Origin: Marsupella aquatica
Taxonomy: Eukaryota; Plantae; Marchantiophyta
Assembly: GCA_973895155.1 (NCBI GenBank)
Contig: OZ316897.1
Span: forward strand, 23,473,455 to 23,537,454
DNA length: 64,000 nucleotides
Direction: 5' to 3'
Below the pieces are notes generated by a model. It saw only the letters and a program-made list of their open reading frames with translations. It was not told the DNA's origin and ran no database searches. The number at the start of each line of letters is the position of its first letter. Within the stretch, counting starts at the first letter, position 1. Made by a program: the position numbers and the translations under genes. Below are positions 7,225-64,000 of the stretch, in pieces.

Positions 7225-7607
7225 AATTCCACCTGGGACAGGTTGCAATTTAAGTGGAGGGCGGTAGTTATACTTAGTTAGAATTAGTGACCCTCCCTAG
7301 TAAGTATTCGGCATATTTTTTTAATTTTTTTTAGTTACTTTCAGTTTTTACATTGGACGCTGTGAAAAGCGTCCATTGTAACTCGACGCTGGGGAAGCGT
7401 CCACTTAGTTTACAAAGGACGTTGTGCAGAGGTCCGCTTTTGTATTAGTTCAGTTGCATGAGACGCTGTGAGCCGATGACTAGGCATCTTGTACAATGGC
7501 GGATTGCGACAGCTCAACGGGACGCTGAGGAGTAAGCAGTCGCGCTTCGCCCTAGTTCACTATGGAACACGATTCTCACTGAGCTTACGGAGCTAACAAG
7601 TCACGCG

Positions 7608-10181
7608 ATGGCGGAGACTGAGCTGACGACGCGACCAATACTCGCAGACATTCCATCGAATGCAGTGCATAGGCGGCAGTTGAAGACGGCTCTGGCAAAA
7701 ATGGGCTTGAAGAAGCTGCTTCAACTTCCTTGGAAGATTTGCGAATTCAGACTTATCGATCAAGGTGTCTGGGACGCTGAAGAAAGGATTGGTGTGCGCT
7801 CGCGTCCCAGTGTTTGGACTGAAGCGCTCATAGCGAAGGTCTATTCGACGCCGATGGAGGGCGAGGATTTACAGAGGGTTGATTGTGAGCCTCGGGTTTA
7901 TGTAGAATCCTTCTTCGCTCCAGGATCTTTCAAGAGGCGGAATGGATGGCTAGCGGCGGACTGCTTAGATAATTCTCTGCAGCGTCTATTTCGATTTCTG
8001 GCACCAATTTTCTACCCAGAAAGCCAGACGCGCATCACTCTTTCGTTCGCTGCAACGGTGATCTGTTCATTAGAACAGACGCAGTCTATCAATTGGACGA
8101 AGGTTTTGCACCGAGTAATTCATACTCAGGTCAAAAATTTTCGTAGCAGGCTGAAAACGGGGAAAATAAGGTGTACCTACTTGGCCCCTTATTTAGCTCA
8201 CATTTACCATAAGTATGACTGTCTGCTTGTCTTGGAAAAAGATTTTTATCGCAACAATCAGAGAGCATCTACCGGTGAAGCAAATTATATGCCTGAAGTA
8301 CGAGAAGTCCGAGCCAATTCCACAGTGGTAGAGCTATGTGCAATACTCGACTGTGAGGAACCTGAACTGGTGGGTGAAGTTCGGAAATTGAAAGAGACAA
8401 GAGCATCAGCTGAAGGGAGTGACGATCCGATTCTTCACCAACCAAGAGAGGCTCAAGTTGCCGAAGATGTTCCTTCAGCAATGCCAACAGGGTTGGAGCA
8501 TTCTATGTCACCTCGACTCTCGTGTTCACCTTGTGCTGCCGAGCCTATTTATGATGTTGATCAGGATAATTCTGCTTCTCGGATGAATGTTGAAGATGAG
8601 GTGAGGGTGGATGAAGAAGGTTTTTCAGGGGAACCTCTTCAACATTCTACTGCTGAGGACGAGTATGATGGATTTACTTCTACCCCTGTTTTGGTTCCCA
8701 TAGAGGCAAATAGTGATGCTTTGCAGGCTTTACAGGAGTATGATTCGTCCGACTCTCTTAGTTCTAGCCCAAATATAGGTGAAATCCCTCTGGTCCAGGA
8801 GTCAGAAATATTAAGCTCAGAAATTGTGAAGCTGGTTAAAGTTGATTCGGAGGATGCAATTGTGGATATAGACGAAGTAGGTGAACCAGTGACTTCTCCC
8901 CAATCTGTCGCAAGATACCCTGCCTGGTCTACACCTGGTTCACTCATATCGATTCCTTTGGATATAACTAAGGAATTAGATGAGGCAATAGCCGCGATAG
9001 GAGCTCCTTCATTTCCGCCTGTAAAATGGGTTTCTCCTGAAGATGAGTTGATTGAAGGAGGCTCTGCTGGTTTTCCGAGTCGCAATCAGGTATCTGGTAA
9101 TATGGGTATATCTGTACCCATATTGGTACCCGAGACACCCGCTTCGACAACCAGCTCAGCACCAGTTTCATTGGCTACAAACGAGGATAAAAACATTCGG
9201 GAGGAGTTTTCAGTGACGTATACTCGAAAATCTTGGAAACGGTTGCGCCATGCTATCAGTCGACAGATCTTTCCTGAAGCATCTTCCCAGGATTTTGAAC
9301 AGGGAGAAGCACCTATCGGAACAAACGAGCTACCCCTTCCTGTACTTTTGACAGATCGAACTAACCAGGAAGTCTCTTTACCTAGCGATAATTTTAAAGA
9401 AGAACTTCCTGTTTTAGTACCAATGCATCCCATTGCAGATCAACCAGCTACTGTTGCAAGAGAAGAATTTGAACCACTGGAGCCCGAACCTTCTGCTCCT
9501 TCGTCTCCTGTTACATTGCCAATTCGACCAGTTAAGGAGTCAGTGATTCCTTCCGCTATGCCAGATGTAATTTTCCGTTGGATAGGAGCACCAAGTGATG
9601 GAGAAGAAGACGAAGACCCTCGCATTATCAGAGTACCTCCTCGACTTCGGCATACAGTGGATTTGCCACCCCGAAATCCTATCCCTAATTTGGCTTCAAT
9701 TCACAGGTGGGAGAAGAAACATTTTCGAGTAGCTTTTCGACATCTGGAGATGGAGAGCATTTTGCAGCAGCAGCAGATTTTGCCAATGACATCCCATCCG
9801 AGGATTCGTAGTTTGATTCGCACATATGAACCTGGGAAGGCGGTTCCTCCCATTGATAAGGACAGACGACATAAGTTTTCGGAGTTCGAAATTTGGTGTT
9901 GGGTGTATATGCTTCGACGAGCTCAAGCTCCATTTCCGCCCCTTGTGCCGGAAATTCCATGGCCCTATCCATACTATGTTTGGGTTTGTCCTGGTGGGTT
10001 TGCTATTCCAATTAAATATGAGAAGAAGCTTGTTAAGCTAAGGGAGCAGTTGATTACAAAACAATGTATGCTACCGGCTTCCCAAGGGTTCAAGTCGCTT
10101 AGGTGTTTAGCGTTCCTACCTATTATTCCTTCTTATCCGGATTTGATTATTCAAGGTGTTTTATCTAGGACACAGATTTGA
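7608..10181 (+). CDS. Extra ORF3 of the gypsy element: N-terminal plant-mobile-domain/plant-transposon-protein-like region plus an acidic, proline-rich tail
   Basis: Uninterrupted 857-aa ORF between integrase and PPT. The N-terminal ~210 aa aligns by eye with the ORF of the 4.7-kb LTR-like unit. No obvious transmembrane helix. Confidence 0.7.
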   Translation: MAETELTTRPILADIPSNAVHRRQLKTALAKMGLKKLLQLPWKICEFRLIDQGVWDAEERIGVRSRPSVWTEALIAKVYSTPMEGEDLQRVDCEPRVYVESFFAPGSFKRRNGWLAADCLDNSLQRLFRFLAPIFYPESQTRITLSFAATVICSLEQTQSINWTKVLHRVIHTQVKNFRSRLKTGKIRCTYLAPYLAHIYHKYDCLLVLEKDFYRNNQRASTGEANYMPEVREVRANSTVVELCAILDCEEPELVGEVRKLKETRASAEGSDDPILHQPREAQVAEDVPSAMPTGLEHSMSPRLSCSPCAAEPIYDVDQDNSASRMNVEDEVRVDEEGFSGEPLQHSTAEDEYDGFTSTPVLVPIEANSDALQALQEYDSSDSLSSSPNIGEIPLVQESEILSSEIVKLVKVDSEDAIVDIDEVGEPVTSPQSVARYPAWSTPGSLISIPLDITKELDEAIAAIGAPSFPPVKWVSPEDELIEGGSAGFPSRNQVSGNMGISVPILVPETPASTTSSAPVSLATNEDKNIREEFSVTYTRKSWKRLRHAISRQIFPEASSQDFEQGEAPIGTNELPLPVLLTDRTNQEVSLPSDNFKEELPVLVPMHPIADQPATVAREEFEPLEPEPSAPSSPVTLPIRPVKESVIPSAMPDVIFRWIGAPSDGEEDEDPRIIRVPPRLRHTVDLPPRNPIPNLASIHRWEKKHFRVAFRHLEMESILQQQQILPMTSHPRIRSLIRTYEPGKAVPPIDKDRRHKFSEFEIWCWVYMLRRAQAPFPPLVPEIPWPYPYYVWVCPGGFAIPIKYEKKLVKLREQLITKQCMLPASQGFKSLRCLAFLPIIPSYPDLIIQGVLSRTQI

Positions 10182-13790: not shown

Positions 13791-14042
13791 TGTAAAAGAC
13801 TGAGGAAGCTTTGTCTACCAACGTGCATCCCCCCTTTGTGGATCTAACTCCACTACTGCTCCTCGGGGCTCAAGAGCTTTGGCTGTCCCACGTGTCAAAG
13901 CTGCTGATGCATCAATATGTGCAGTGCCACACATGAATCCCATGGTGGCAAGGTCTCCATCAGCTCCATAAGATGTGGAAGGACCATGGGATGTGGAAGG
14001 TCCATAGGATGTTGATGCCCCATCACCAAAAGTAGGTCTCAC

Positions 14043-15377: not shown

Positions 15378-15420
15378 TGCCGCTGGCCGAAATTATGCCC
15401 CACTTCGAGTGAAACCGGTC

Positions 15421-16447: not shown

Positions 16448-19400
16448 CCTGGAAAGGCTGGGCGGCGACCCTACCGGAGGAAGTGCAATTACACTTTGCA
16501 CGGGAGGAGGATGCATGCTTTACAGCCATGCAGACCAAGAAGTACCAAGGCTTCATGGCCGGATCCGGCTTGGAAGCTTTCGTAAGATTACCAGGGCTGA
16601 AGCCCGAGGTGCCGGACTCAGACTTGTTAGAATTCGTGGGATCATGGGAACCCGAGACCAATTCCACGAGGGTGTATGGGAAGGATTTCTATCTCACTCC
16701 CCGGGTGATTGCTGAAGTGTTTGGCTTGCCGATGGGTAATAAGACCAAGGTTGATACTAGGAAGACCTTACCTGACAAGGAGTTTCGGTCGTTCCTAGGA
16801 CCATCAACAAAGAATGGCTTCTTCCGAAACACCTGCACCAACCCGCACATCGGAGAGATGATCGATTTCTTGCGGGTGACCATGCACTGTAACTTTCCGA
16901 GGGCAGAGATCGGCAAGGCTCAGGTCTACCTGGCAGAAAGGCCAGACCCAAGCCGGGATTACAACGGGTACCTCCTCAACCAACTGAAGAAGATCTTGAA
17001 GGAGGAACAGCAGGTGATCGGCGTGGGAAGCGTGTCCCGGCTTGGCTATCACATGCCGCTGTTGTGCCGGTATGCCATAAGTCAAATCTTTGCCCCAGTA
17101 CTTCCCCTATCGACAAGAGCACCGGAGGAGGTCCCAGAGCAGAGGCCGGCACCAGAGAAGCCCAACCAGCCTGACAGTCTGACGATCGAGCAGGTGTTTA
17201 GACCAAGGAAAGAAGACTTGCCGATGCAGCAACCAGGCATGCAGAATCTGCTGAAATTGCTGGAGAAGGAAAGGAGAACGGTTCCGGCAACAACAACAAA
17301 ACCGGCACCGATACAAGACGCTGCCCCAGAAGCCGACCTAAGCCGGCTTACAAGGGAAAACCCCTTTACTAGAGTCAAGGAGAGAGGGAGGCCGGAACAT
17401 GAGTCGGGAGTCCGGATGTATGTAGGAGCCTCAAGTCCCGAAGCCGAGGAAAAGCAGGCCGTAGCTCCCGACCACGACAAGGAGAACAAGAGATCAACAC
17501 GGAAGCCGGAGGAGGAACCAAGACCGGTGAGAGGTGAAGCCGTGTTCACAACAAAACCAGGACAACAGCGGGAGAAGCCGGTAGTCCAAGCCGAGGAGGA
17601 GGCGGTAGAGGACTACAGCAATGATGACTCCGGCTATGGGTCGGATCATCATGTTCCAGGAGTAAGGACCTGTGGCCGGTTCATCCCCACGCTCCCAAGA
17701 GTAGTTCGAGGAGACCCAAGCCAACAGAGCAGCCCCGAGTCTCCCCCACCAGATGTCGCTCCCCCGAGCTTTGACAGCATAAAATAGACGGTGTAGGAAT
17801 TTCAGGAGCGAATCAGGGAGGAAGAGGAGGCAGCCCTGGCTAGGGAAAAGGATTTACCAGGAGGAGAATGGCCAGAGGACATCAGGCGGCTTGCAGAAAA
17901 ACAAAGCAACCCTCTTGCCACCGTAGAAGAAATCCGCAAGACGGCTTGGGAGCAGAGGCCGCGGTGGTTGATGCCGATGACTTCTAGTTACTCCACCTAT
18001 GCTAAGGATAGAGCCATCGAGTACGGGGAAATGCGTGGAGAGCTGGCGCTCAGCATCTTTGGGGAGGAGTTGGAGCAAGGACCCTTTTTCCAGAGGGAGA
18101 TGTTGGAGAAGCGCCAATTAGAAGAAGCGGTGACTTTGGAAAGAAGCAAGAAGGACGAGGTCATCCGTCAGCTTAGGGCAAGAGAAGCCAAAATCAAAGA
18201 CCTGAGGGCGGCCAAGAAAGCCCAAGATGAACTGCGGATAAAGCGGCATGAGCTAAATATCATGCAGGGCCAATTGGATACCGCACAGTCTGATAATCGG
18301 ATTATCGAGAATAAACTGACTCGAACCCAAGGAGAGTTCGTCGATGCGATCAAGGAGCGGGAGAAGTGGAAGCGAGAGCTGAGGGATGCAGAGGAGGCCC
18401 ACATAACGGCCAACAACCGGGCCATGGCGGAGACCCAGAGAAGGGAAAGGGCATTGAAGGGGGAGCTCGAGGTTATCCACGGAGCCCTTGAGAAGAAGGA
18501 GGCCGAGTTAGGGAAATCCTATCAAGGGATTATTGCGCTGCAGCAAGAGCTTGCGTCCCTGACGGCCAGCTTCAAAGCCGACCTGCGTGAGAAGGACAAT
18601 ATGCTCGATCAGACTTATGCCAAGATGAACCAGATGGAGTCTGTCATCATTGCAGAGCTCGACAAGGAGTTAAGAGCGACCCAGGAGGAGAGAGTTGCGT
18701 TTAAAAAGGAATTGGAGGAAGCCCAGAAGGAGCTGGAGGAGGCGTGCAAGGACCTGGAGGAGGCGTGCAAGGACCTGGACGAAGTGCAGGAGGAGTTGGA
18801 GGAAAGCACGCGGAAGCTAGAGAACTTACAACGACGAGCCGACAACCAAACGGAGCGGCTGAAGAAACAAGCCGCAGTATTTAAGTGCTTGGCTTCATCA
18901 GGGCCAACTCAAATTGAGGCCACTAAGTTACCAGGAGTGGTACTAGCCGAAGGACAAACCGCGCCATTTGCACCAGTGCTGGAAGTAAGTAAGAAGGGGA
19001 AGGGGCCAGCTGCCGAACCAGAAAAGAAGAAGAAACGGAAACCTTCAGGGTCAAGGAGTAATACGGCTCCACAGGCCGTGGTGACCATGGAGGTAAACCC
19101 AGCACCGACCTCAGGCAGGATTACGGTAGAGGATCCAACTACCCTAGAAGGGGATGACAAAGCCAAGGCCAGGATACTCGGTAATGAAGCCGAGGTACCC
19201 AATCTGCCACTTAAGTGTGCAAGGGAGGCCGTAGGCGAGGCTGAGGCCGTAGCCGAGGCTGATGTTGAAGCCGATACCGTAGCCGATGCCGGGGGTGGAC
19301 CCAGTCAGGCCGATGGAGAGTTGACTCAGTCAAGGACAGGTAATCTGTCAAAGAACGAACCTACGGCAGTGGCTGAGGAGGAAGCATTGGGGGCATCCAT

Positions 19401-20329
19401 TGAGGGACAGACACCGTTGCCATGACGGTGGTGGAGGGCTGCTCCTTTCAAGGAGGGCGGACGTGGAGGGAGGAGGCGTGAGTGGGCAGGGCGGGCTCAG
19501 ATCTCTAAGTTTAGGATTAGGATCAGGACCAGGAGGCGGCCCTGACACTTAGCTTAGTGGGATTGCGGTTCCACTGGTAAGAGCAACACTTGTACTCCTG
19601 CCTCGCTGTACATAGGTAGATTCAGTTAGGTAGATTAGGCTTACGCTGCAAAGAATTAGGCGGATCCACTACCAGGATAAGTACCTGGGCAGCGGGGAGC
19701 TCAGGGCCTCTTCTTTAGCAAGTTTTTAGTTGCACCAGCCAGGCTGGGATCAAGTAGTAAGAGAAGCTCTCGGTTAGTCATACAATGACCCTTGTGTATA
19801 TTCATGTTTCCTCATGCCTAAGAGCTGAATAGAGTTGGCCTCACGGCTTAGTTCGCAGAGCTTGTGTATGAGATGTACTGTTTGTATGGCAAGTGCATGG
19901 TATGACTCAGTCAGAAGGAGTCATTTTGCTATTTGTGTGTCGCATTAACTTGTGTGAAGAGTGCCCACATCAACTAATAGATGAAGGAAAGTAAGCAAGG
20001 GAGTGAGAGTTGGATGTGTCGAGCTGAGAGAGGTCTTAGCGGCTTAACCAAGCCTATTGGGGATCATTCCGGCGGCGGAATCCAAATATACCTAACAAGT
20101 AGGAGGGGAAGACAAGGGAAGGCCTAGATTAGGCCGGCTACGTATCTCATGACCCGATGAAGGATCTGTCCAGTATATGTGTGTAAAATGTTAATAGTAG
20201 TAGTAGAGGGAGATTAGCAGCGTCCCATGCCACTAAGCCGCGAAAACGGCCTCGCCAAGCGCAAAACCTGCGGGAATCGGCTTGTGAAGGGGGGTTTCTG
20301 GGGTTTAGGGAGCCATGGGACGCACCACA
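16448..20329 (+). mobile_element. 4.7-kb protein-coding LTR-like unit, copy 1 (5' part displaced by nested insertions)
   Basis: Highly similar to copies 2-4; ends GACGCACCACA. Confidence 0.85.
16483..19425 (+). pseudogene. Unit ORF (PMD-like domain plus long coiled coil) with in-frame stops near 17787-17796
   Basis: ORFs 16483-17787 and 17968-19425 are in the same frame. The stops correspond to CAG codons in other copies. Confidence 0.75.
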
Positions 20330-23300
20330 GTACACCGGCCTCATCACTGAGCATTCCGGCTTTGCCCTTGCCATCCCCGCCTTGTAGGATAGTTGGATCC
20401 TCTGCCGTGACCCTGCCTGAGGTTGGTGTCGGGTTTACCTCCTTGATCACGATGGCTTGAGAAACCGTGTTACTCCCCGACCCAAAAGGTTTTTGCTTTT
20501 TCTTCTTCCTTGTTTCAGCAGTTGGTCCCTTCCCCTTGCCACTTACCTCCGGCACCGGTGCGAGTGTCTCGGCTTGTCCTTCGGCCAGTACTACTCCTGG
20601 CAACTTGGTTGCCCCTATTGGAGTTGGACTTGAGGAAGCCAAGCACTTAAATACTGCGGCCTGTTTCTTCAGCTGCTCCATTTGGTTGTCGGCTTGCCGC
20701 TGTCAGTTCTTTATCTTCCACGTGCTTTCCTCCAACTCCTCTTGCAATTCGTCCAGGTCCTTGCGCGCCTCCTCTCGCTCCTTCTGGGCTTCCTCCAACT
20801 CTCTCTGGGCTTCCTCTAGCTTCTTTTTTAAGGTAGCCCTCTCTCCCTGGGTTGCTCTTAGCTCCTTGTCGAGCTCCGTTATGACCTCAGACTCCATTTT
20901 ATTCATCTTGGCATAAGTCTGGTCGAGCTGGTTGTCTTTCTCACGGAGGTCGGCCTTGAAGCTGGCCGTCATGGATGCAAGCTCCTGTCGTAGCACAATG
21001 ATCGCCTGATAGGATTTCCTAACTCGGCCTCCTTCTGCTCAAGGGCTCCGCGGATATCCTCGAGCTCCCCCTTCAACGCCCTCTCCCTTCTCTGGGTCTC
21101 CGCCATGGCCCGGTTGTTGGCTGCTATGTGGGCCTCCTCTGCGTCTCTCAGCTCTCGCTTCCACTTCTCCTTCTCCTTGATTGCATCGACCAACTCTCCT
21201 TGGGTCCGAGTCAGTTTATCCTTGATAATCTGATTATCAGACTGCGCGGTATCCAATTGCCCCTGCGTGATGTTTAGCTCATGCGGCTTAATCCACAGCT
21301 CATCTTGGGCTTTCTTGGCCACCTTCAGGTCTTCTACCTCGGCTTCCCTTGCCCTAATCCGACGGATGACCTCGTCCTTCTTGCTTCTCTCCAAAGCCAC
21401 TGCTTCTTCTAATCGGCGCTTCTCCAACATCTCCCTCTAGAAAAAGGGTCCCTGCTCCAACTCCTCCCCAAAGATGCTGAGCGCAAGTTCCCCACGCATC
21501 TCCCCGTACTCCATGGCTCTTTCTTTAGCATAGGCGGAGTGAGTAGAAGTCATCAGCATCAACCATTGCGGCCTTTGTTCCCAAGCCGCCTTGCGGATTT
21601 CTTCTATCGTGGCTGGAGGGCTGCTTCATTTTCTGCAAGCCGCCTGATGTGCTCTGGCCATTCTCCCCCTGGTAAATCTTTCTCCCTAGCCAGGGCTGCC
21701 TTCTCTTCCTCCCTGAGTCGCTCCTAAAACTCTTGTGCCATCTGTTTTATGTCATCAAATTAAGCTTGGGGGAGCAATATCTAGTGGGGGAGGCTCGGGG
21801 CTGCTCTGCTGGGTGGGGTCCCCTCAAACTACTCTTGGAAGAGTGGGGATGAACCTGCCACAGGTCCTTACTCCTGGAACATGATGGTCCGACCCGTAGC
21901 CGGAGTCATCATGTTCGTAGCCTTCTACCGCCTCCTCTGCGGCTTGGACTACCGGCTCCCCCCGTTGCTCTCCTGGTTTTGCCGTGAACACGGCCTCATA
22001 GATCACGGGTCCTGGTTCCTCCGGCTTCCACGTTGATCTCTTCTTCTCCCTGTCGCGACCAGGAGCTTCGGGCTGTTTTTCCTCGGCTTCGGGACTTGAG
22101 GCTCCTACATACATTTGGACTCTCGGCTCGTGTTCCGGCCTCCTTCTCTCCTTGACCCCAGTAAAGGGGTTTTCCCTGGTAAGTTGGCTTAGGCCAACTT
22201 CGGGAGCAGTATTCTGTACCGGTCCCGTTGCTGTTGCCGTTCTCCTTTCCTTCTCCAGCAATTTCAGCAGATTCTGCATGCCTGGTTGCTGCATCAGCAA
22301 GTCCTCCTTCCTTGGCCTAAACACCTGTTCGATTGTAGGACTGTCGGGCTGGGTTGGTTTCTCTGTTGCCGGCCTCTGTTTCGGAACCTCCTCTGGTGCT
22401 CTTGCCTGCAGGGAAAGTACCGGGGCAAATATCTGACTTCGGGCATACCGGCACAACAGCGACATATGATAGCCAAGCCGGGACACGCTTCCCTTGCCGA
22501 TCACCTGCTGTTCCTCCTTCAAGATTTTCTTCAATTGGGTGAGGAGGTATCCGTTGTAGTCCCGGCTGGGGTCTGGCCTCTCCGCCAGGTAAACTTGTGC
22601 CTTGCCAATCTCTGGCCTTGGCAAGTGGCAGTGCATGGTTACCCGCAAGAAATCAATTATCTCTCCTATGTGCGGGTTGGTGCAGGTGTTCCGAAAGAAG
22701 CCATTCTTTGTTGATGGCCCTGGGAACGATCGGAACTCCTTGTCTGGCAAGGTCTTCCGGGTATCTACTTTGGTCTTATTGCCCGTCGGCAAGCCAAACA
22801 CTTTGGCAATCACTCGGGAAGTGAGATAGAATTCTTTCCCATACACCCTTGTGGAATTGGTCTCGGGCTCCCAAGATCCCATGAATTCTAATAAGTTTGA
22901 ATCCGGCACCTTCGGCTTTAGCCATGGTAACTTTACGAAGGCTTCCAAGCCGGATCCGGCCATGAAGCCCTGGTACTTCCGAGTCTGCATAGCCGTAAAG
23001 CATGCATCCTCTTCGCGTGCAAAGTGTAATTGCACTTCCTCGGGGAGGGTCGCCGCCCAGCCTTTCCAGGTGTCATCCCTTGGTGGAACGGCATTGATGG
23101 GGTTGACCTCCTCTTCTTCAGCTTCTTCCTGCCTCCTGCTCCCTTGCTCGGCTGGCTTCCTTGGTGCCGCCGACCTCGTTCTCTTTGCAGGGGTGGTCTC
23201 TTCATTGATGTTCCCTTTCCTCTTCATAGCAGCTGCCGTGAATGTTTCTCCTAGCACGGTTGCCTTCGTCCACCCCTCCGTGCTACCCTTCAACTCCCAG

Positions 23301-23956
23301 TGTATGTCGTTGCAGCGGTTGATGGCCTCACGGATGCCGACTATTATGTTCTCACAAAATAGAAGATCGTCGAGTTCGTTGGCAGTAGGCGTCCACAAGA
23401 ATTCAGCCGTAATGAGTTCTCCTCCTAAGAAGGCAGACTTCTGCAGCTCCCACAGTCGAGCGAGCTCCTGCCGTTCTCGAGCGGCTCTCTCTGATTCTTC
23501 GTCCTCGTAGGTCCCAATGTACTCAGTTGCCCGTTCTAACAGGCATCCCCAAAAAGGAGCAGCTTGATTGACGTTGCTCATACCCTTCTTGAGTTGATTG
23601 TCGGTATCTACTTCCACCCCGAGTGCTTGCCTGAGCAGCGGACAGTAGTTGGCCTCCCGTAGTCGTCTACTTAGTTCGTGCTTGCAAATGAGCCGCCATT
23701 CCTTGCAATCGATCCTTACCCCTCCCTGACTGGTCTTCCTTCCCGTTAGTTACCTATGGCCGTCGGCACTGAGCGCGCCCTAACCCTAATCGTGTTCCTC
23801 CCCCGGGGTTTTTACTTCCGGCCTCGGCTCGGGTTCCATAGCCATCCTTAATTGTTTATATTTTCCATATTTTTGCTACTACACTAATGTGTTTCCAGGG
23901 TTTACTCCTTATTTTATCATTTAAACTGGCCTAGTGATTCCTGGCTAGGCATCACA
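20330..23956 (-). mobile_element. 4.7-kb LTR-like unit, copy 2 (interrupted by copy 1)
   Basis: Minus strand begins TGTGATGCCTAGCC at 23956. ORF pieces at 21824-23617, 20969-21430, 20703-20996 and 20330-20681. Confidence 0.85.
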
Positions 23957-32460: not shown

Positions 32461-32465
32461 AGTAC

Positions 32466-48300: not shown

Positions 48301-48755
48301 GCCTCAAACTTCCCCCACTTAAGAGTTCATATGTGACTTACTCCCAATAGGAGACCAATATATTTAAGACTTGTATTTTTACCCCCCTTGAAACATATCC
48401 AAAATGACTATAAATGTAACATTGGTGGTGGCACTCTTTCCCTTAGAAGAAAGCAGGAGGGTTTTAATGAGACCACACCAATGGATACCAATTATGTACT
48501 ACATTGATCTATCATTTACGGTTAGATGTTAACCCTAGTGTGGTTGCATTATCTATGATAAAACAACCAAGGGGGAGTGTTGTAACCCATAGGTTAGGTC
48601 AACATCCAACCCTAGTTAGGGTATTAAGGTAGTTACTATAACTACCACTACATCTATACCTAGGGAGGTGTTAGTAAACCCCCATGAATGGATGAACCTT
48701 GATTGTTGGTGTACTTGACATTCTCTCTCCTAAGAATTATCTCCACCTCTCAACA
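45384..48755 (+). mobile_element. Non-autonomous Ty1/copia (Bianca-type) LTR element
   Basis: 178-bp LTRs at 45384-45561 and 48578-48755 with one mismatch seen, TSD ACTTT, PBS CGTTATCAGCACG, PPT AAGGGGGAG. No long internal ORF. Confidence 0.9.
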
Positions 48756-49547
48756 ACTTTATGTTTTTTTTTACTTGGAAACACCAATTATTGGAATATC
48801 AAGAAATACTTAGTGTTTCAACTGACTCGCAGGCCAGAGTGGAATCTTCGTGAGAGGTTTCACCTACGAAGGAAATTTTTGAGGAAAGTCCTTGTTACCC
48901 CTGAGAAACCGTTTGTATTGCCTTCATACGTAGAGTATGCCGCTCGCAAAGAAGAGAGTAGGAGAACCTTTACCTGGGAGAACAAACTAAGGCTTACGAT
49001 TGAGATGAGGTTCAGATAAAAAGTTTATCCGTCATCCCTTTGTCAACAACATGGCACATAATGAATTTATAGACGATGAAGCAAAGTCTACGGATAGATC
49101 GGAGAGTAGTGGGCCCGGTAGTGGGTCAGAATCTGGAGATTAGAATAGAATAGATGAGGTGTATTCATCCTTTTTTAACAAATTACCTCCTCCAAATTAG
49201 TAGCACCCGGTGCTACTTATTATACTCATCACATTGCTTTATATAAATACAAAGTGGGAAAGGTTTGATTTTCCATAAATCATTTTTGGAAGTCAAGTGT
49301 ACTGAAATGCTGCTATAAATGTTAGTACATGTACTAATGTATGATGAAAATCCAAATGTCCGTGACTGTGATACTTAATCGTTATACTGACTGGAAGTTT
49401 CTCTTTATTGGGGAAAGAAACAGAAAATTTAGGGTAGAGGTTTAGCTCGCACCCTCTACGTTCAACACCCTCTCCGTTTGACACCCTCAGTCTCCGTTCA
49501 AGAATTTCCAGTAGCTCCTTTGCCATTCGCGCTGCAAAGACGTTGCT

Positions 49548-52500
49548 TGTGGTGCGTCCCATGGCTCCCTAAACCCAAGAAACCCCTCTCACAAGCCGAT
49601 TCCCGCAGGTTTCGCTCTTGGCGAGGCCGATTTCGTGGCTTTAGCGGCATGCGACGCTGCTAACATCCTTCTACTACTATTGCTATTAACAGTTTATTCA
49701 CATATACTGGACAGATCCTTCATCGGGTCATGAGATACATAGCTGGCCTAATCTAGGCCTTCCCTTGTATTCTCCTCCTTTTCTTTAGGTATATTTGGAT
49801 TTTGCCGCCGGAATGATCCCCAATTGGCTTGGTTAAGCCGCTAAGACCTCTCTCAGCTCGACACATCCAACTCTCACTCCCTTGCTTACTTCCCTTCTAT
49901 TAGTTGATGTGGGCACTCTTCACACAAGTTAATGCGACACACAAATAGCAAAATGACTCCTTCTGACTGAGTTATACCATGCACTTGCCATACAAATAGT
50001 ACATCTCATACACAAGTTCTGCGAACTAAGCCGTGAGGCCAACTCTATTCAACTCTTAGGCATGAGGAAACATGAATATACACAATGGTCACTGTATAAC
50101 TAACCAAGAGCTTCTCTTACTACTTGATCCCAGCTCTGCTGGTGCAACTAAAAACTTGCTAAAGAAGAGGCCCTGGACTCCCCGCTGCCCACGTACTTAT
50201 CCTGGTAGTGGATCCGCCAATTCTTAGCAGCGTAAGCTTAATATATCCTACCTGTAATCTACCTAACTGCAATCTACTTATGTACAACGAGGCAGGAGCA
50301 CAAGTGTTGCTCCTACCAGTGGATCCGCAATCCCACTAATCTAAGTGTCAGGGCCGTCTCCTGGTCCTGATCCTCAACCTAAACTTGGAGATCCGAGCCC
50401 GCCCTGCCCACTCACGCTCCTACCTCCACGTCCACCCTTCCTAAAAGGAACGACGCCCTTGCACCGTCACGACACCGGTGGTGGATCCTCAATGGACGCC
50501 CCCAACGCTTCCCCCGCAGCCACTGCCGTCGGTCCTTCCTCTGACAAATTACCTGCCCCGGACCGAGTCAACTTTTCATCGGCCTGACTGGGTCCACCTT
50601 CGGCTTCGGCATCAGTATCGGCCACGGCTTCCCCGACTATGGTCTCCTCGGTTGGCTCTAGTGGTGGGTTTGCTACCACGGTTTCATCAATAGTTGTCCC
50701 GGCCTCAGCCTTGCCATCCCCACCTTCCTTGACATGTGGATCCATTGTTGTGACCATGCCGGAAGTTGGTGTTGGGTTTACCTCCTTGGTCCCGACGGCT
50801 TGAGGAGCCGTAGTACTCCCTGACCCAGAAGGTTTCCGCTTCTTCTTCTTCTTCTTCTTTGGTTTGGCAGCTGGCCCCTTCCCCTTGCCACTTACCTCCG
50901 GCACCGGTGCGAGTGTCTCGGCTTCTCCTTCGGCCAGTACTACACCAGGTAACTTGGTTGCCCCAATTGGAGTTGGTCCTGAGGAAGCCAAGCACTTAAA
51001 TACTGCGGCCTGTTTCTTCAGCCGCTCCGTTTGGTTGTCGGCTCGCCGCTGTAAGTTCTCCATCTTCCGCGTGCTTTCCTCCAACTCCTCCTGCAATTCA
51101 TCCAAGTCCTTTCTTGCCTCCTTCAGCTCCTTCTGGGCTTCCTCCAACTCTTTCTTTAAGGTAGCCCTCTCCTCCTGGGTTGCTCTCAGCTCCTTGTCGA
51201 GCTCCGCCACGACCTCAGACTCCATTTTATTCATCTTGGCATAAGTCTGGTCGAGCTGGTCATCTTTCTCACGGAGGTCGGCTTTGAAGCTGGCCGTCAT
51301 GGATGCGAGCTCCTGCCGCAGCACAATAATCGCCTGATAGGATTTCCCTAACTCGGCCTCCTTCTGCTCTAGGGCTCCGCGGATATCCTCGAGTTCCCCC
51401 TTCAACGCCCTCTCCCTTCTCTGAGTCTCCGCCATGGCCCGGTTGTTGGCTGCTATGTGGGCCTCCTTTGCGTCCCTCGCTTCCACTTCTCCCTATCTTT
51501 GACCGCCTCGGCCAACTCTCCTTGGCTCTGAGTCAGTTTATCCTTGATAATCTGATTATCAGACTGCGCGGTATCCAACTGCCCTTGCATGATGTTTAGC
51601 TCATGCCGTTTAATCCGTAGCTCATCTTGAGATTTCTTGGACGCCTTCAAGTCTTTTACCTCGGCTTCCCTCTCCCTAAGCCGCCGGATGATCTCGTCCT
51701 TCTTGCTTCTCTCCAAAGCCACCGCTTCTTCTAATTGGTGCTTCTCCAACATCTCCCTCTGGAAAAAGGGTCCCTGCTCCAACTCCTCCCCAAAGATGCT
51801 GAGCGCCAGGTCCCCACACATCTCCCCGTACTCCATGGCTCTATCTTTAGCATAGGTGGAGTAACTAGAAATCATCGGCATCAACCACCTCGGCCTCTGT
51901 TCCCAAGCCGTCTTGCGGATTTCTTCTATGGTGGCAAGAGGGTTGCTTCTTTTTTCGGCAAGCCGCCTGATGTCCTCCGACCAATCTCTTCCTGGTAAAT
52001 CTTTCTCTCTAGCCAGGGCTGCCTTCTCTTTCTCTTTGAGTCGCTCCTGAAACTCTTGTGTCGTCTGTCTTATGCCGTCAAAACTCGGGGGAGCGACATC
52101 TGGTGGGGGAGACTCGAGGCTGCTCTGCTGGGTCGGGTCCCCTCGAACTACTCTTGGAAGAGTGGGAATGAACCTGCCACAGGTCCTTACTCTTGGAACA
52201 TGATGGTCCGACCCATAGCCGGAGTTATCATTGCTGTAGTCCTCCACCGCCTCCTCCATTGCTTGGACTCCCGGCTTCCCCCTCTGTTCTCCTGGTCCTG
52301 CCATGAACACAACCCCACAGATCACGGGTTCTGGATCCTCCGGCTTCCACGTTGATCTCATCTTCTCCCTGTCGTGACCAGGGGCCTCGAGCTGCTTCTC
52401 CTTGGCTTCGGGACTTGAAGCTCCTATATACATTCGGACTCCCAGCTCATGTTCCGACCTCCTTCTCTCCTTGGCTCCGGTAAAGGGGTTTTCCCTGGTA

Positions 52501-54609
52501 AGTTGGCTAAATCACCCTATTCATTAAAAGTGTATTTTATTTTGTTCACTTTTAGGCCTCGAAATGTACACTTTTTGGTCTCTAAATGTACACTTTTTAA
52601 CCCCAAAAGGTACACTATAGTACAATACTCTACACCTAAATAGTCAATTGTAAATTTGAGGGAGAAAAAATGATCTTTACTAGAAGGAGTCTCATCCTAG
52701 TTCAGTTATAAAAGATGAACATGGTGGTATGTTTGATGGCCATCACCTCTATTTCTTGCCCAAATGTACACTTTTTGAAAGCCAAATGTACACTTTCTAT
52801 TGCCGAAATGTTCACAAATTGAATAATAATTCACTTTTAATGAATAGATTGATCTAAGGCAGACTTTGGAAGCAGTATTCTGTGCTGTTGCCGTTGCCGT
52901 TCTTCTTTCCTTCTCCAGCAATTTCAGCAGATTTTGCATGCCTGATTGCTGCATCGGCAAGTCTTCTTTTCTTGGCCGAAACACCTGCTTGATTGTAGGA
53001 TTGTCGGGCTGGGTCGGTTTCTCTGTTGCCGGCCTCGGTTTCGGAACCTCCTCTGGTGCCCTTGCCTGCAGGGGCAGTACCGGGGCGAATATCTGGATTC
53101 GGGCATACCGGCACAACAGCGGCATGTGATAGCCAAGCCGGGACACGCTTCCCATGCCGATCACCAACTATTCCTCCTTCAAGATCTTCTTCAGTTGGTT
53201 GAGGAGGTACCTGTTGTAGTCCCGGCTTGGGTCTGACCTCTCTGCCAGGTAGACCTGTGCCTTGCCGATCTCTGCCCTCGGCAAGTTGCAATGCATGGTC
53301 ACCCACAAGAAATTGATCATCTCTCCGATGTGCGGGTTGGTGCAGGTGTTCCGGAAGAAGCCATTCTTCGTTGATGGCCTTGGAAACGACCGGAACTCCT
53401 TGTCTGGCAAGGTCTTTCTGGTCTCTACCTTGGTCTTATTGCCCATCGGCAAGCCAAACACTTCGGCAATTACCTGGGGCGTGAGATAGAAATCCTTCCC
53501 ATAGACCCTCGTGGAATTGGTCTCGGGCTCCCATGAATTCTAATAAGTCTGAATCCGGCACCTCCGGCTTCAGCCATGGTAATTTTACGAAGGCTTCCAA
53601 GCCGGATCCGGCCATGAAGCCCTGGTACTTCTTGGTCTGCATGGCCGTAAAGCATGCATCCTCCCCCCGTGCAAAATGCAATTGCACCTCTTCTGGTAGG
53701 GTCGTCGCCTAGCCTTTCCAGGTGTCATCCTTTGTTGGAATGGCGTTGATGGGATCGACCTCCTCCTCCTTGGCTTCCGCCTACCTCCTGCTTCCCTGCT
53801 CTGCTGGCTTCCTTGGTGCCGCCGACCTCGTTCTTTTTGCCGGGGTGGCCTCTTTGTTGTTGTTTCCTTTCCTCTTCATCTCGGCTGCCGTGGATGTTTC
53901 TCCTAGCACGGTTGCCTTTGTCCACCCCTCCGTGCTACCCTTCAACTCCCAGTGTATGTCGTTGCAGCGGTTGATGGCTTTCCAAATGCCGACGATCCTA
54001 TTTTCGCAAAGCAGAAGGTCGTCGAGCTGATTGGCAGTAGGACTCCACAAGAACTTGGCCTTGATGAATTCTCCTCCTAAGAAGGCAGATTTTTGCAGCT
54101 CCCACAGTCGAGCTAGCTCTTGCCGTTCTCGAGCTGCTCTCTCCGATTCTTTGTCCTTGTAAGTCCCAATGTACTCAGTTGCCCGTTCGAACAGGCATCC
54201 CCAAAAATGTGCCACTTGATTGACGTTGCTCATACCCTCCTTGAGTCGTTCGTTGGTATCTGCTCCCACCCAGAGTGCTTGTCTAAGCAGCTAACAATAG
54301 TTGGCCTCCCGTAGTCGTCTGCCCAGGTCGTGCTTGCAAATGAGCCACCATTCCTCACGAGCTGTCCTTACCCCTCTCCTCCTCTGGTCTTCCCTACCGT
54401 TGGTTACCCCTAGCCGCCGACACTTAGTGCGCACTAACCCTAATCGTATTCTCTCCCCCGGCGTCCTTACTTCCGGCCTTGGCCCGGGTTCCATAGTCAC
54501 CCTTAATTGTTTATATTTTCCTCATTATTGTAACTATACTAAGGTGTTTCTAGGGTACACTTCCGTTTTCCCACTTAACCGGCCTAGTGATTCCTGGTTT
54601 GGCATCACA
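49548..54609 (-). mobile_element. 4.7-kb LTR-like unit, copy 3 (complete, with MITE insertion)
   Basis: Termini TGTGATGCC...GCACCACA on the minus strand; flanks TTGCT/TTGTT (5-bp TSD with one mismatch); fragmented ORF at 50467-54269. Confidence 0.88.
52511..52853. mobile_element. MITE copy A
   Basis: TIRs ATCACCCTATTCATTAAAAGTG / CACTTTTAATGAATAGATTGAT and flanking CTAA duplication. Absent from the other unit copies at this site. Confidence 0.88.
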
Positions 54610-55659
54610 TTGTTCTAGAGACCATGGAGAAAGGGAAGCAGGTCCTTCAAGAGAGAACTTTAGGCCCCCCGAAGTTGGAGGGAAAATCTTTGAATGACTC
54701 TCTGGCTTTGGAAGTCCCCATCGTTGAGACTCCTCACTTTGAGACCTCGACTGAGAGGAATTGACTATGGCTGGCCTCAGAAGAGGCGATAAGCCTTCAA
54801 GAAAAATCAATTCCTTTCGCTGATTTGTCTCCTCCCCGGTCTTTCCGAGAACGGTTCTCTATTCACGATCCGGATCCTTCTGATGTCTATAGGGTTGGAC
54901 AGACGGCGTTTTTCAGGGACATTCAACAGTGGACCGGGTGAGTTGGATTTTCTGATTCCAACATACCAAATTGCAGGTTGAGGAGTCGCCTTCCAGGACC
55001 ACGTTTTTTGTCTGAGCGGGATGATGGATTTTGTCAAGATGAGGATCAGTTCACTATCGGACTCAATGACGAGTGTGGATCATTGACGTCTTGAGATTGT
55101 AGGAAATCTAGAGTCTTTTTGAAGACTTACAAGATAGTATATAGCGCCTGGCGCTATCGCCATCACAGAAGGAAGGAGTTAGGGTGCAGTGTCGATCCTT
55201 GATGGTTTGTTTCTAGCTTACGACTTCCTTGTTGTTTAGTCTTTTTTACCACTCGTGAGCTCTCTTGACATTTTGGAGCTTGAAGTCAGAATAGGTATCA
55301 TCACCTTCCCTTACGTTTGTGCCACAATGTAAAGCACTAGCCGGATTATTTCTTGGACGAAGTTATATGTTAGTTACCCGGAGCGCCTTTGGGATTAGTT
55401 TGTTCAGCGACGTATTCCTGGATGTTTTGGATACTGTGACATGGGTTTTAAAGTAGCGCCAGGCGCTACTAGTATATCTCAACATTTTGACACACTTTAA
55501 TTTGAAGGACCATTCTTTACATGTTATCTCGATCCTTTTTTATATGGCAAATATTGTGTGAATTTCCACACTTATTTTACTGTTATGTTTTCTTATTTCT
55601 TGTTACTGTTTCCTATTTCCTATCACGGAGAAAAACCTTGATGGATTGTGCTTGACTCT

Positions 55660-56466: not shown

Positions 56467-57231
56467 TGTGACACCGATGATATGGTCCTTATTCTATAAT
56501 CTGATTAACTAGGCTGTTGTATGCAAGGAGTAGCTATTGATATTGCATAACAATTAGCAAGATGGAGCATGAAGGCTCTTCAAGACGCTGGTACGGAGGT
56601 AGGCGTGGTAATTCAAGGAAGCGAGTCTCCATAGCTGAATATGAAGCTGTGTGGTATGGTGATTGTTCTCATGATAAAATCTGAATGTCTTTGGGTGTGT
56701 AGCTTCATTTTTTAATTTGGGTTAGTGGTTCATAGTCTAGTCTTAGAAAGTTAGGGAAATAAAAGCTATGTTGCGGGTGGTCGGCGACCATATCTCTTTC
56801 AATACGTCACCAAATCCAGATCTGTAAACAGCATTGGAAAGATCTGGTCAAGGCGAGTAAAATCGATATAAAACACTTGGGAAACGGAGGTGTATTAAGA
56901 AAGATACAGCCTGATTAGTGTGACAGATTAACTTGTGGCCGGAATGAGCGGATTCGGCTTCGGTTTCGGGTTACCCTAAGCTGAGGCCACAACTTAGCTC
57001 AGGTCAGCACGGCTTCAGCTTATCTCAGGTCAGCATAGCTTCAGCTTAGCTCAGGTTAACACGGCTTCAGCTTAGGCTTAACCCGAACCCGGGTTAGATT
57101 GAGCCCGGGTTAGACAGAACTTCGGTTAGCCTAAGCTCGGGTTCGGGCTCAGCTTAGCCTAGGTTAGCGGATAGCGGGTAGCGGCCTAACCCGAGACCAC
57201 GGGTTAGCTCTAGTCGGGTTAGATAGGATAG
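56467..57231 (+). repeat. LTR 5'-end fragment (TGTGACACCG...) with 26-bp tandem repeats
   Basis: Inverted homolog at 59553-60248; CTCAGGTCAGCACGGCTTCAGCTTAG repeats. Confidence 0.65.
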
Positions 57232-60248: not shown

Positions 60249-61123
60249 GAACGCGAATACGAGAGAGCCATCCGCCTAGCAGGACGACACCACTATCTCC
60301 TTAACTTTGATTACCCATCCCAGAGCGAGCTTTACCAACCCAAAGAAGTATCAGGGTACTTCTTTGATAGAGGCAAATACATCGGCTTCTGGGAAGCATT
60401 GCTTCGGCTTCCGGATGAGGTCTTCAATATCCCGAGCACGATTGACTTGCAGCGGCACCACTTCGACCACATCCCCGCTCGGGTCCGGGCTATCATCAAC
60501 AGCGAGTTCAACACTGCCCGGTCGACAGGGCCGTCTTCACTTGCTTCGGAAAACCTCCACCGGCACCTGCAGAACTTCATGGCAACTCTACCATCAGCGA
60601 CCAGTGCCGGCCAACCCGTGCCCGTGCCCGTACCCGCACCTACACCTCCTTGGCCTCAGCCGAGCCGGTCCCCGCCACCGGTCCCACCACCTCTCTGAGT
60701 ATGATCCATGGTAAATGCGGTGAATATTAGCTCCGAAGACGAGGAGGCTCACCCTCCTCTGAATCGACGGCCGCGGGGTATGACTCAACAAGCGCCGAAC
60801 AACCCAGCACCACTCTAGCAAGCCCGAGGGGATAACACGGTAACTCTAGTGGCCTCGGCACCAATACTCACGGCAGTCGCGCTACCACCACTTGACCGAG
60901 AGGATGGAGAGATATCCCCCTCTTCTAGTCACCTCGGGAATCAGTCTCGGGGTAGGAAGAGGAAGGAGCCTGTGATGCCTAGCCAGGAATCACTGGGCTA
61001 GTTTAAGGGGAAAAGGGAAGTGTACCCTAGAAACACCTTAGTATAGTTACATAAATAAGGAAAATATAAACAATTAAGGGTGACTATGGAACCCGAGCCG
61101 AGGCCGGAAGTAAGGACGCCAGG

Positions 61124-61444
61124 ATCACCCTATTCATTAAAAGTGTATTTTATTTTGTTCACTTTTAGGCCTCGAAATGTACACTTTTTGGTCTCTAAAT
61201 GTACACTTTTTAACCCCAAAAGGTATACTATAGTACAATACTCTACACCTAAACAGTCAATTGTAAACTTGAGGGAGAAAAATTGATCTTTACTAGAAGG
61301 AGTCTCATCCTAGTTCATTTATAAAAGATGAACATGGTGGTATGTCTGATGGCCATCACCTTTATTTCTTGCTCAAATGTACACTTTCTATTGCCCAAAT
61401 GTTCATAAATTGAATAATAATTCACTTTTAATGAATAGATTGAT
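61124..61444. mobile_element. MITE copy B
   Basis: Same TIRs and body as 52511-52853; flanking CAGG duplication. Confidence 0.88.
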
Positions 61445-61635
61445 CAGGGGAGAGAACACGATTAGGGTTAGGGCACGCTAAGTGCCGGCGGCTAGGGGTA
61501 ACCAACGGGAGGGAGAACCAGCGGAGGAGAGGGGTAAGGACCGCTCGCAAGGAATAGTAGCTCATTTGCAAGCACGAACTGAGCAGGCAACTACGGGCGG
61601 CCAACTACTGTCAACTGCTTAGGCAAGCGCTCAGG

Positions 61636-63546
61636 GTGGGAACAGATACCGACTATCAACTCGAGAAGGGTATGAGCAACGTCAATCAAGCGGCACATTT
61701 TTGGGGATGCCTGTTCGAACGGGCAACTGAGTACATTGGGACTTACGAGGACGAAGAATCAGAGAGAGCAGCTCGAGAACGGCAGGAGCTCGCCCGATTG
61801 TGGGAGCTGCAGAAAGCTGCCTTCTTAGGAGGAGAACTCATCAAGGCTGAATTCCTGTGGACGCCTACTGGCAACGAGCTAGACGACCTGCTATTTTGCG
61901 AAGACAGAGTCGTCGGCATCCGAGAAGCCATCAAACGTTGCAACGACATACACTGGGAGTTGAAGGGTAGCACAGAGGGGTGGACAAAGGCAACCGTGCT
62001 AGGAGAGACATCCACGGAAGCCGAGATGAAGAGGAAGGGGAACAACAACGAAGAGGCCACCCCGGCAAAAAGAACGAGGTCGGCGGCACCAAAGAAGCCA
62101 GCAGAACAGCAGAGCAGGAGGCAAAGAGAAGCCGAGGAGGAGGAGGTCAACCCCATCAATGCCATTCCAACAAACGATGACACCTGGAAAGGCTGGGCGG
62201 CGACCCTACCGGAGGAAGTGCAATTACACTTTGCACGGGAGGAGGATGCATGCTTTACAGCCATGCAGACCAAGAAGTACCAAGGCTTCATGGCCGGATC
62301 CGGCTTGGAAGCCTTCGTAAGATTACCATGGCTGAAGCCGGAGGTGCCGGACTCAGACTTGTTAGAATTTGTGGGATCATGGGAACCCGAGACCAATTCC
62401 ACGAGGGTGTATGGGAAGGATTTCTATCTCACTCCTCGGGTGATTGCTGAAGTGTTTGGCTTGCCGATGGGTAATAAGACCAAGGTTGATACCAGGAAGA
62501 CCTTACCTGACAAGGAGTTTCGGTCGTTCCCAGGACCATCAACAAAGAATGGCTTCTTCCGGAACACCTGCACCAACCCGCACATCGGAGAGATGATCGA
62601 TTTCTTGCGGGTGACCATGCACTGTAACTTGCCGAGGGCAGAGATCGGCAAGGCTCAGGTCTACCTGGCAGAAAGGCCAGACCCAAGCTGGGATTACAAC
62701 GGGTACCTCCTCAACCAACTGAAGAAGATCTTGAAGGAGGAACAGCAGGTGATCGGCGTGGGAAGCGTGTCCCGGCTTGGCTATCACATGCCGCTGTTGT
62801 GCCGGTATGCTAGAAGTCAAATCTTTGCCCCAGTACTTCCCCTATCGGCAAGAGCACCGGAGGAGGTCCCGGAGCAGAGGCCGACAACGGAGAAACCCAA
62901 CCAGCCCGACAGTCCGACGATCGAGCAGGTGTTTAGACCAAGGGAAGAAGACTTGCCGATGCAGCAACCAGGCATGCAGAATCTGCTGAAATTGCTGGAG
63001 AAGGAAAGGAGAACGGTTCCGGCAACGGCAACAGCAACGGCACCGATACAAGACGCTGCCCCAGAAGTTGACCTAAGCCGACTCAGAAGGGAAGACCCCT
63101 TTACCGGAGTCAAGGAGAGAGGGAGGTCGGTACACGAGCCGGGAGTCCGGATGTATGTAGGAGCCTCAAGTCCCGAAGCCAAGGAAAAGCAGGCCGTAGC
63201 TCCCGGCCACGACAAGGAGAACAAGAGATCAACACGGAAGCCGGAGGAGGAACCAAGACCGGTGAGAGGTGAAGCCGTGTTCACGACAAAACCAGGAGAA
63301 CAGCGGGAGAAGCCGGTAGTCCAAGCCGAGGAGGAGGCGGTAGAGGACTACAGCAATGATGACTCCGGCTACGGGTCGGATCATCATGTTCCAGGAGTAA
63401 GGACCTGTGGCCGGTTCATCCCCACGCTCCCAAGAGTAGTTCGAGGAGACCCAAGCCAGCAGAGCAGCCCCGAGTCTCCCCCACCAGATGTCGCTCCCTC
63501 GAACTTTGACGGCATAAAACAGACGGCGCAGGAATTTCAGGAGTGA
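61636..63546 (+). pseudogene. Unit ORF N-terminal 636 aa (PMD-like domain)
   Basis: GLEAFVRLPW..LLEFVGSW..VYGKDFYLTPRVIAEVFGLP; premature stop relative to copies 1 and 3. Confidence 0.72.
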
Positions 63547-64000
63547 ATCAGGGAGGAAGAAGAGCCAGCCCTGGCTAGGGAAAAGGATTTACCAGGAGGA
63601 GAATGGCCATAGGACATCAGGCGGCTTGCAGAAAAACGAAGCAACCCTCTTGCCACCGTAGAAGAAATCCGCAAGACGGCTTGGGAGCAGAGGCCGCGGT
63701 GGTTGATGCCGATGACTTCTAGTTACTCCACCTATGCTAAGGATAGAGCCATGGAGTACGGGGAAATGTGTGGAGAGCTGGCGCTCAGCATCTTTGGGGA
63801 GGAGTTGGAGCAAGGACCCTTTTTCAGAGGGAGATGTTGGAGAAGCGCCAATTAGAAGAAGCGGTGACTTTGGAAAGAAGCAAGAAGGACAAGGTCATCC
63901 GTCGGCTTAGGGCAAGGGAAGCCGAAATCAAAGACCTGAGGGCGGCCAAGAAAGCCCAAGATGAGCTGCGGATTAAGCGGCATGAGCTAAATATCATGCA

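Follow-up and report, generated by a model that had tools for sequence, protein, structure and literature searches.

A 4.7-kb mobile unit with LTR-type ends carries a long gene shaped by purifying selection in the liverwort Marsupella aquatica

We analyzed a 64,000-bp stretch of the liverwort Marsupella aquatica genome (NCBI GenBank assembly GCA_973895155.1, contig OZ316897.1, positions 23,473,455 to 23,537,454 of the forward strand), referred to below as the window and numbered from its first base. The window is rich in repeats, several of which are nested in one another. Our subject is a repeated unit of about 4.7 kb that ends like a long terminal repeat (LTR) and is filled for the most part by one open reading frame (ORF). 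Four copies are present, together with a Ty3/gypsy retrotransposon, gypsy A, that carries a homologous ORF (Table 1).

The unit, its ends and its copies

Copy 3, the only complete one, measures 5062 bp, or 4719 bp once an inserted miniature inverted-repeat transposable element (MITE) of about 345 bp at 52511-52854 is set aside. Read on the plus strand it begins with TGTGGTGC at 49548 and closes with GCATCACA at 54609; on the minus strand, the sense of the ORF, this becomes TGTGATGC...GCACCACA. The TG...CA ends match each other in inverted orientation at 7 of the first 8 bases and at chance level beyond, and they are of the same style as the U3 attachment (att) consensus TGTAACACCC described for Del elements (PMC4029996). 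The original prediction had these coordinates and termini exactly. It had also named short LTRs or terminal inverted repeats (TIRs) as evidence that would count against its own reading, and we looked for both. Between the two ends of copy 3 there was no inverted repeat longer than 10 nt and no terminal direct repeat, the longest word common to the first and last 600 bp being 11 nt, and blastn gave no self-match of the unit ends as direct repeats. Pfam likewise bore out the predicted lack of retrotransposon domains, with no match to gag, reverse transcriptase (RT) or integrase (rve) in the six unit ORF pieces scanned. The flanks of copy 3 are unrelated on both sides, with no gag-pol, primer-binding site (PBS) or polypurine tract (PPT) attached.

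Table 1. Positions of the unit copies, their parts and the related features of gypsy A within the window.
Feature	Position	Strand	Remarks
gypsy A pol	4252-7224	+	RT, RNase H and integrase (Pfam)
gypsy A accessory ORF	7536..10181	+	homologous to unit core; between pol and purine tract/putative 3' LTR
gypsy A putative 3' LTR	10748-12212	+	follows purine tract; matching 5' LTR lies outside the window
Copy 1, 3' part	16448..20329	+	left edge cut by gypsy LTR 15514-16447; sits inside copy 2
Copy 2, 5' part, inverted	20330..23956	-	homology extends to end of copy 1
Left half of target duplication	49543..49547	+	TTGCT; 4/5 match, P ~0.016
Copy 3, only complete unit	49548..54609	-	4.72 kb plus inserted MITE
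Non-coding tail	49548..50466	-	~920 bp; AATAAA at 49693-49698
Broken accessory ORF of copy 3	50467..54494	-	4 stops, 2 frameshifting deletions, 1 MITE
Heptad-rich charged coiled-coil region	50983..51659	-	mapped from copy 1; followed by lysine-rich run near 50833-50862
MITE	52511..52854		terminal inverted repeats, TA duplication; inserted in copy 3 ORF
Conserved core domain	53033..53744	-	mapped from copy 4; predicted VANC21-like fold; Transposase_32/ATHILA/DUF1985/PMD group
Leader before first ATG	54495..54609	-	115 bp; TATAAA at 54510-54515
Right half of target duplication	54610..54614	+	TTGTT; flanks copy 3
Copy 4, 5' part	60971..64000	+	runs to window end; inserted in another repeat; holds MITE 61124-61445

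Read in the sense of the ORF, the unit has its only TATAAA at position 95, some 20 nt ahead of the first ATG, and an AATAAA 150 nt short of its far end. The tail is well conserved: divergence between copies 1 and 3 is 0.077, fivefold less than at synonymous sites (dS = 0.40), which reflects either constraint in cis or recombination, as one pair of copies cannot tell the two apart. A hidden reading frame in the tail found no support, with substitutions spread 17/24/25 by position modulo 3 and several 1-bp indels present. No Rfam families or tRNAs were found in the window. A 35-bp hairpin-forming motif at 58130-58164 is common to the unit tail (88.6%, E 2e-5).

All four predicted copies were recovered by self-blastn, at 84.6-96.5% identity and covering 24% of the window, although neither copy 1 nor copy 2 is more than a fragment, and the latter is in inverted orientation. 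The sequence following the 3' end of copy 1 continues the homology of copy 2, so copy 1 landed inside copy 2, facing the other way. The LTR that cuts copy 1 at its left edge (15514-16447, ends TGTCA...TGACA) comes from a gypsy element on the minus strand. Copy 4 entered another multi-copy repeat, part of which (60257-60970) holds the remains of a proline-rich frame with a basic run at its end, without a Pfam match. A purine run in front of copy 4 was considered as a PPT and rejected, the DNA upstream being this other repeat, that is, the insertion target. Other copies of the repeat continue behind 60967-60970 with different, mutually similar letters in 4/4 runs (5-14 contigs per row, agreement 0.70-0.90; the runs are introduced below), and the window has 12 places where 20 of 21 successive bases are purines. 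The MITEs at 52511-52854 and 61124-61445 belong to one family of about 320-345 bp with GATCA...TGATC ends. Their duplications are 2 bp long (TA in copy 3, apparently AG in copy 4) and mark independent sites in two units.

We then compared the unit with contigs from 4 of 7 sequencing runs, the best-matching of which may include the source of the window itself. Mismatch-free contigs span the left junction of copy 3 in 3/4 runs (X1, X2, X3) and the right junction in 2/4 (X1, X3). At the unit terminus at 60971, at least 6-7 contigs in each of three of the four runs exit exactly there into unrelated flanks (agreement 0.45-0.51), and one X1 contig joins position 53118 to the terminus at 49548. The unit termini are therefore reproducible at other loci. 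Summed contig depth in X1 is 3e4-1e6 along the whole unit, against 70-122 for the junction contigs; depth is not itself a copy number but, allowing for contig overlap, suggests hundreds to low thousands of units. Scans of metagenome contigs and viral contigs found no locus for the unit. No RNA data set was listed among the matching ones, which is no evidence on expression either way. Overall, the unit is a real and abundant mobile insertion.

The accessory ORF and its homologue in gypsy A

The ORF takes up about 78% of the unit. Counted from its first ATG, which lies at 54494 and 116 nt inside the TGTGATGC end, it has about 1,228 codons; starting at a second ATG in the same frame leaves about 1,141. 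The single long frame of about 1,170 residues that had been predicted is present, but it is broken in every copy: copies 1-4 hold 2, 5, 4 and 2 stops, copies 2-4 have frameshifts, and copies 3 and 4 carry MITEs. Pairwise Nei-Gojobori ratios of nonsynonymous to synonymous divergence (dN/dS) over the whole ORF were 0.19-0.41 in 6/6 pairs (P 1e-3 or lower; the pairs are not independent). By region, the core gave 0.08-0.21, the coil 0.15-0.53 and the tail of the ORF 0.36-0.53. Three shifted control frames gave 0.8-3.3 and a fourth 0.5-0.9. An antisense frame with common third positions gave 0.16-0.24, and because it also scores low, the strand is assigned from the long open frame and not from dN/dS. 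In copy 2, a 1-bp and a 2-bp deletion within codons 1-87 jointly restore the frame. The ORF has evolved under purifying selection.

The encoded protein has two basic runs and three heptad-rich stretches, in keeping with the predicted basic patch and coiled coil; the PMD-like domain predicted beside them was not called by Pfam. No transmembrane segment was found, the highest 19-residue hydropathy being 0.84 and 0.87 in two long natural pieces, and an Env-like role was ruled out on this ground. A phmmer search with the unit protein over 1.84 billion representatives gave 23 matches, the best at 41% identity, several of which show the same layout of core and coiled coil. All relatives with a named organism, in 3 of the 10 clusters looked up, came from the liverwort Calypogeia fissa. 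No match at E 0.001 came from word-index protein searches with the unit, and none under E 0.06 from a sequence search of the PDB.

Within the window, the core has one clear homologue. A profile built without the extra ORF of gypsy A finds that ORF at E 6e-8 among 1262 six-frame pieces, with no other non-unit match under E 0.7, and a profile leaving out all window sequences finds it at E 2e-7. Atlas assigned the gypsy A ORF to PF20167 Transposase_32 (0.92, 172 features) and PF03078 ATHILA (0.92), and a word-index protein search with it returned one relative. The link of the unit protein to the PMD/DUF1985 group is drawn from the profile search, Atlas and the fold, and not from Pfam.

An AlphaFold model of the core (pLDDT, the predicted local distance difference test, 79.5; alignment of 21 sequences) had VANC21 as its top Foldseek row (template-modeling (TM) score 0.47). 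VIA-align placed the model on VANC21 at Z 9.2 over 207 residues, with a root-mean-square deviation (rmsd) of up to 4.1. Similarly, in a search of 48,161 chains VANC21 alone reached Z of at least 5 (Z 9.0, rmsd 4.0, 203 aligned), the next chain scoring 2.5. No entry of a viral fold library matched under E 0.001 (the best had E 0.026 and TM 0.31), and single-sequence prediction of the first 440 residues (pLDDT 37) gave no fold call for the N-terminal domain. VANC proteins are described as carrying DUF1985, binding short motifs that form arrays in non-coding DNA of the transposon encoding them, and removing methylation (PMC5735166); they are reported to be structurally related to MAIN and to have a coiled coil (PMC13547354). 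The unit protein is accordingly predicted, from the model, to bind DNA through a VANC21-like fold. A common fold does not by itself show function; judged from the fold alone, anti-silencing is the most likely function of the protein.

In gypsy A, GACGC-N7/8-GCGTC palindromes occupy the non-coding parts, which hold 11/11 of those in the window (780-879, 7356-7401 and 10951-11242; respectively the leader, the spacer between pol and the ORF, and the putative 3' LTR). Palindromes together with a homologous ORF are, by analogy, the layout expected of a VANC-type protein with a target array, and gypsy A may thus hold a candidate protein-and-target pair.

Several other features were observed in the window. 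An uninterrupted gene for a DYW-type pentatricopeptide repeat (PPR) protein with E, E+ and DYW domains, of the RNA-editing factor type, lies at 34901-37498. The minus-strand gypsy element at 12771-15392, to which the LTR at 15514-16447 belongs, has GGGATAG after its LTR and not a TGG primer-binding site, and its priming may be non-standard; the 14 terminal bases of this LTR are found again at 37497, where the PPR frame starts. The region 56468-60256 has long inverted arms and TGTGAC ends without a matching duplication, and within it an LTR-like stretch of about 620 bp begins at 57232 with TGTGATGCC. The region shares its hairpin motif with the unit tail and may represent a long LTR family that is related but lacks the ORF. 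A small LTR element at 45384-48755 (178-bp repeats 99.4% identical, a purine tract before the second repeat, an ACTTT duplication, and no ORF of 200 residues inside) is a recent non-autonomous copia-like derivative. Decayed long frames without a Pfam match lie at 24376-28237 (minus) and 28777-32903 (plus), the former with Cys/His motifs that we take to be reminiscent of a Mutator-type transposase.

Origin of the unit and competing explanations

We consider the unit to be probably the solo LTR of a Ty3/gypsy family in which an accessory gene, likely coding for an anti-silencing protein, was taken into a 4.7-kb LTR. We favor this reading because the ends are of the LTR type, TIRs and short LTRs are lacking, the ORF was under purifying selection and its core is homologous to the accessory ORF that gypsy A carries between pol and LTR. 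The original prediction had put this interpretation forward as one of two; it gains from the ends, the selection and the gypsy A homology, while the other, a single-unit element, still stands beside it. The VANC21 fold match was no part of that prediction.

A number of observations weigh against it. The target duplication, which does flank copy 3 as predicted, is imperfect, with 4/5 bases alike (chance about 0.016), and copy 3 alone allows the comparison, the other three copies being one-ended. All unit ends within the window (5/5) adjoin unrelated DNA, and no flank is common to the 19 contigs listed for the 5' junction, though these are few and skewed toward unique junctions. Neither a two-LTR parent nor a PBS or PPT was seen at the unit ends in the window or in these listed 5'-end contigs. 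On the side of the protein, Pfam finds no family for the ORF, its core or its relatives, the Atlas scores of the unit core both fall under 0.9 (DUF1985 0.87, PMD 0.85), the Foldseek E value for VANC21 is only 0.75, and sequence identity within the fold match is 9-10%. Codons 1-87 show only weak constraint, short of significance (dN/dS about 0.5, P 0.08-0.10), and the unit tail holds no array of target motifs, its commonest 7-mer occurring 3 times.

The unrelated flanks would also suit a single-unit non-autonomous element, that is, an LTR-like cassette with att-like ends, its own VANC-like anti-silencer, a very high copy number and no two-LTR parent, moved as DNA, or via intermediates that are circular or in tandem, by an integrase that it borrows from an element of the gypsy or Ginger type. 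This explanation fits every junction seen, both the 5/5 ends in the window and the 19 contigs listed. The unit resembles a self-contained transcription unit (TATAAA, ORF, AATAAA), the ORF makes up most of it, and depth is high from end to end. We nevertheless judge it unlikely. As 3/4 copies are one-ended, host-flanked ends are just as much expected of 5' or 3' LTRs, and junction contigs from LTR to internal region, if short and of high depth, may have been missed in the contig comparison. We know of no way for a lone LTR to regenerate its ends by reverse transcription, and of no precedent for the replication route that a single unit would need. Integrase-type DNA transposons do occur in bryophytes, as reported for GingerRoot, but with TIRs of 100-150 bp and 6-bp duplications (PMC6839031), whereas the unit has no TIR beyond 8 bp.

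A different doubt concerns the protein only. With the structure of the element as we favor it, the protein may, as has been proposed for other gypsy accessory ORFs, act as a chromatin tether, an integration-targeting factor or a trans-activator, a possibility that we hold to be real but doubtful and whose odds overlap those of the favored reading, the structural part being common to both. The fold group includes the PMD proteins MAIN and MAIL, which are described as acting in silencing (PMC5418596, PMC13547354), the function of gypsy accessory ORFs is an open question (PMC7264820), and the unit lacks a motif array. On the other hand, the sole solved structural match is the DNA-bound domain of VANC21, and gypsy A, with its homologous ORF, concentrates all the palindromes of the window in its non-coding parts.

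Far less credit is due to a conventional non-autonomous element with a VANC-like gene, either one with short LTRs (terminal-repeat retrotransposon in miniature, TRIM, or large retrotransposon derivative, LARD) or a TIR transposon of the Mutator-like element (MULE) or CACTA type. That some VANDAL elements have poor TIRs speaks for it. Against it, MULE duplications are 9 bp and those of CACTA elements 3 bp with CACTA ends, whereas the unit has a 5-bp duplication and TG...CA ends. VANC genes are indeed reported from Mutator-like VANDAL elements (PMC5735166), but copies as young as these (85-96% identity) would still show matching LTRs, and the ends share no direct repeat longer than 11 nt and no inverted one longer than 10 nt, which largely refutes this explanation. 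We give next to no weight to a host gene family, a segmental duplication or an assembly artefact, despite the long ORF under purifying selection. The boundaries are sharp, other repeats and the unit itself have served as insertion sites, no copy is intact, and depth is very high; the junction-spanning independent contigs and the recurrent exits at 60971 refute it.

If the unit is a solo LTR with a gene, its simplest history may be sketched as follows. A parent of the form LTR-gag-pol-LTR would exist elsewhere in the genome, in which the boundary of the LTR shifted past an accessory gene like that of gypsy A, 3' of pol. With the gene inside the LTR, reverse transcription would write it twice. 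While selection acted on the gene, the parent would have replicated over a long period (dS between copies 0.3-0.4), and LTR-LTR recombination, favored by long LTRs, would have left solo units that keep the original 5-bp duplication. Such recombination has parallels: solo-to-full ratios are described as high in Physcomitrella and as rising with LTR length (PMC7251063), and Retrosat2, with an LTR of over 3.2 kb, is reported to have 2.6 solo LTRs per full element (PMC3485330). The gene would be transcribed from the internal TATAAA and AATAAA signals, and a solo unit could still express it. If these signals are those of the LTR itself, the ORF would be part of a giant R region, and otherwise of U3; the termini are compatible with either LTR orientation. 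The protein would enter the nucleus via its basic runs, oligomerize via its coiled coil and bind the DNA of its own family, resulting in less silencing or more transcription.

Relation to known elements and significance

The closest likeness in gene placement is sag, a short membrane superantigen gene of MMTV-type betaretroviruses (MMTV: mouse mammary tumor virus). Like the unit gene, it is an accessory gene inside the LTR (in U3) that survives in solo LTRs, which made up 490/527 contigs with MMTV-type sag genes in the report consulted (PMC4667437). It differs in belonging to an animal retrovirus and in its unrelated sequence, whereas the unit gene is about 3.5 kb long, encodes no transmembrane segment and looks nuclear. 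In protein layout, the unit is similar to the accessory ORFs of Athila, Retand (TRP28), Ogre and the PMD-A elements, which share a conserved N-terminal domain, basic runs and a coiled coil (PMC7264820, PMC11963269, PMC5418596); PMD clades A1 and A2 are described as gypsy-encoded (PMC5418596). In these accounts, however, the ORFs are internal to the element, placed either ahead of gag or after pol and before the 3' LTR, and not within one LTR; Retand LTRs measure 315-1,194 bp.

In LTR size, short att-like inverted ends and frequent solo LTRs, the unit recalls Ogre, with LTRs of 1.9-6.5 kb, and Retrosat2 of the Tekay/Del group (PMC6431247, PMC3485330, PMC4029996). Their long LTRs are treated as non-coding in these sources, with extra ORFs outside, and the unit family has no RT by which to be placed among them. 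VANC21 of VANDAL21 (PDB 9lnj/9lnk; PMC5735166) shares the predicted core fold and the coiled coil but is encoded by Mutator-like DNA transposons, in a family described as dicot-specific (PMC13547354). Its identity to the unit protein is low, no array of target motifs was found in the unit, and the anti-silencing role of the unit protein is proposed from a model. With TG...CA ends, a 5-bp duplication and no transposase, the unit is not a VANDAL Mutator-like element. Ginger elements share single-unit structure and TG...CA ends with it, and GingerRoot its occurrence in bryophytes, but both are described as having a DDE enzyme, long TIRs and duplications of 4 or 6 bp (PMC6839031). None of these was found in the unit, although non-autonomous copies would lack the enzyme in any case.

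LTRs of plants are regarded as non-coding, and where plant retrotransposons have extra genes, descriptions place these in the internal region. We found no description of an ORF within a plant LTR in the literature covered, which took in few subscription papers and did not extend to Repbase, and a prior description is possible. The LTR type and the gene family group are both known; their combination and the link to VANC are apparently new. If the favored reading is true, a selected 3.5-kb LTR gene doubles its dose in each element and stays in every solo LTR, and the usual genomic removal of retrotransposons would leave the gene in place. If the single-unit alternative were true, the unit would be a new kind of plant mobile element, a cassette whose only gene is a VANC-like anti-silencer, and the VANC fold would occur in bryophyte gypsy-derived elements, far outside the Mutator elements of dicots. 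The fold match, itself based on a model, may give a class of gypsy accessory ORFs a testable function, namely sequence-specific escape from silencing. The origin of VANC has been proposed as the capture of a MAIN-like host gene in dicots (PMC13547354). A relative of VANC in bryophyte gypsy elements would point to an older history, borne by retrotransposons.

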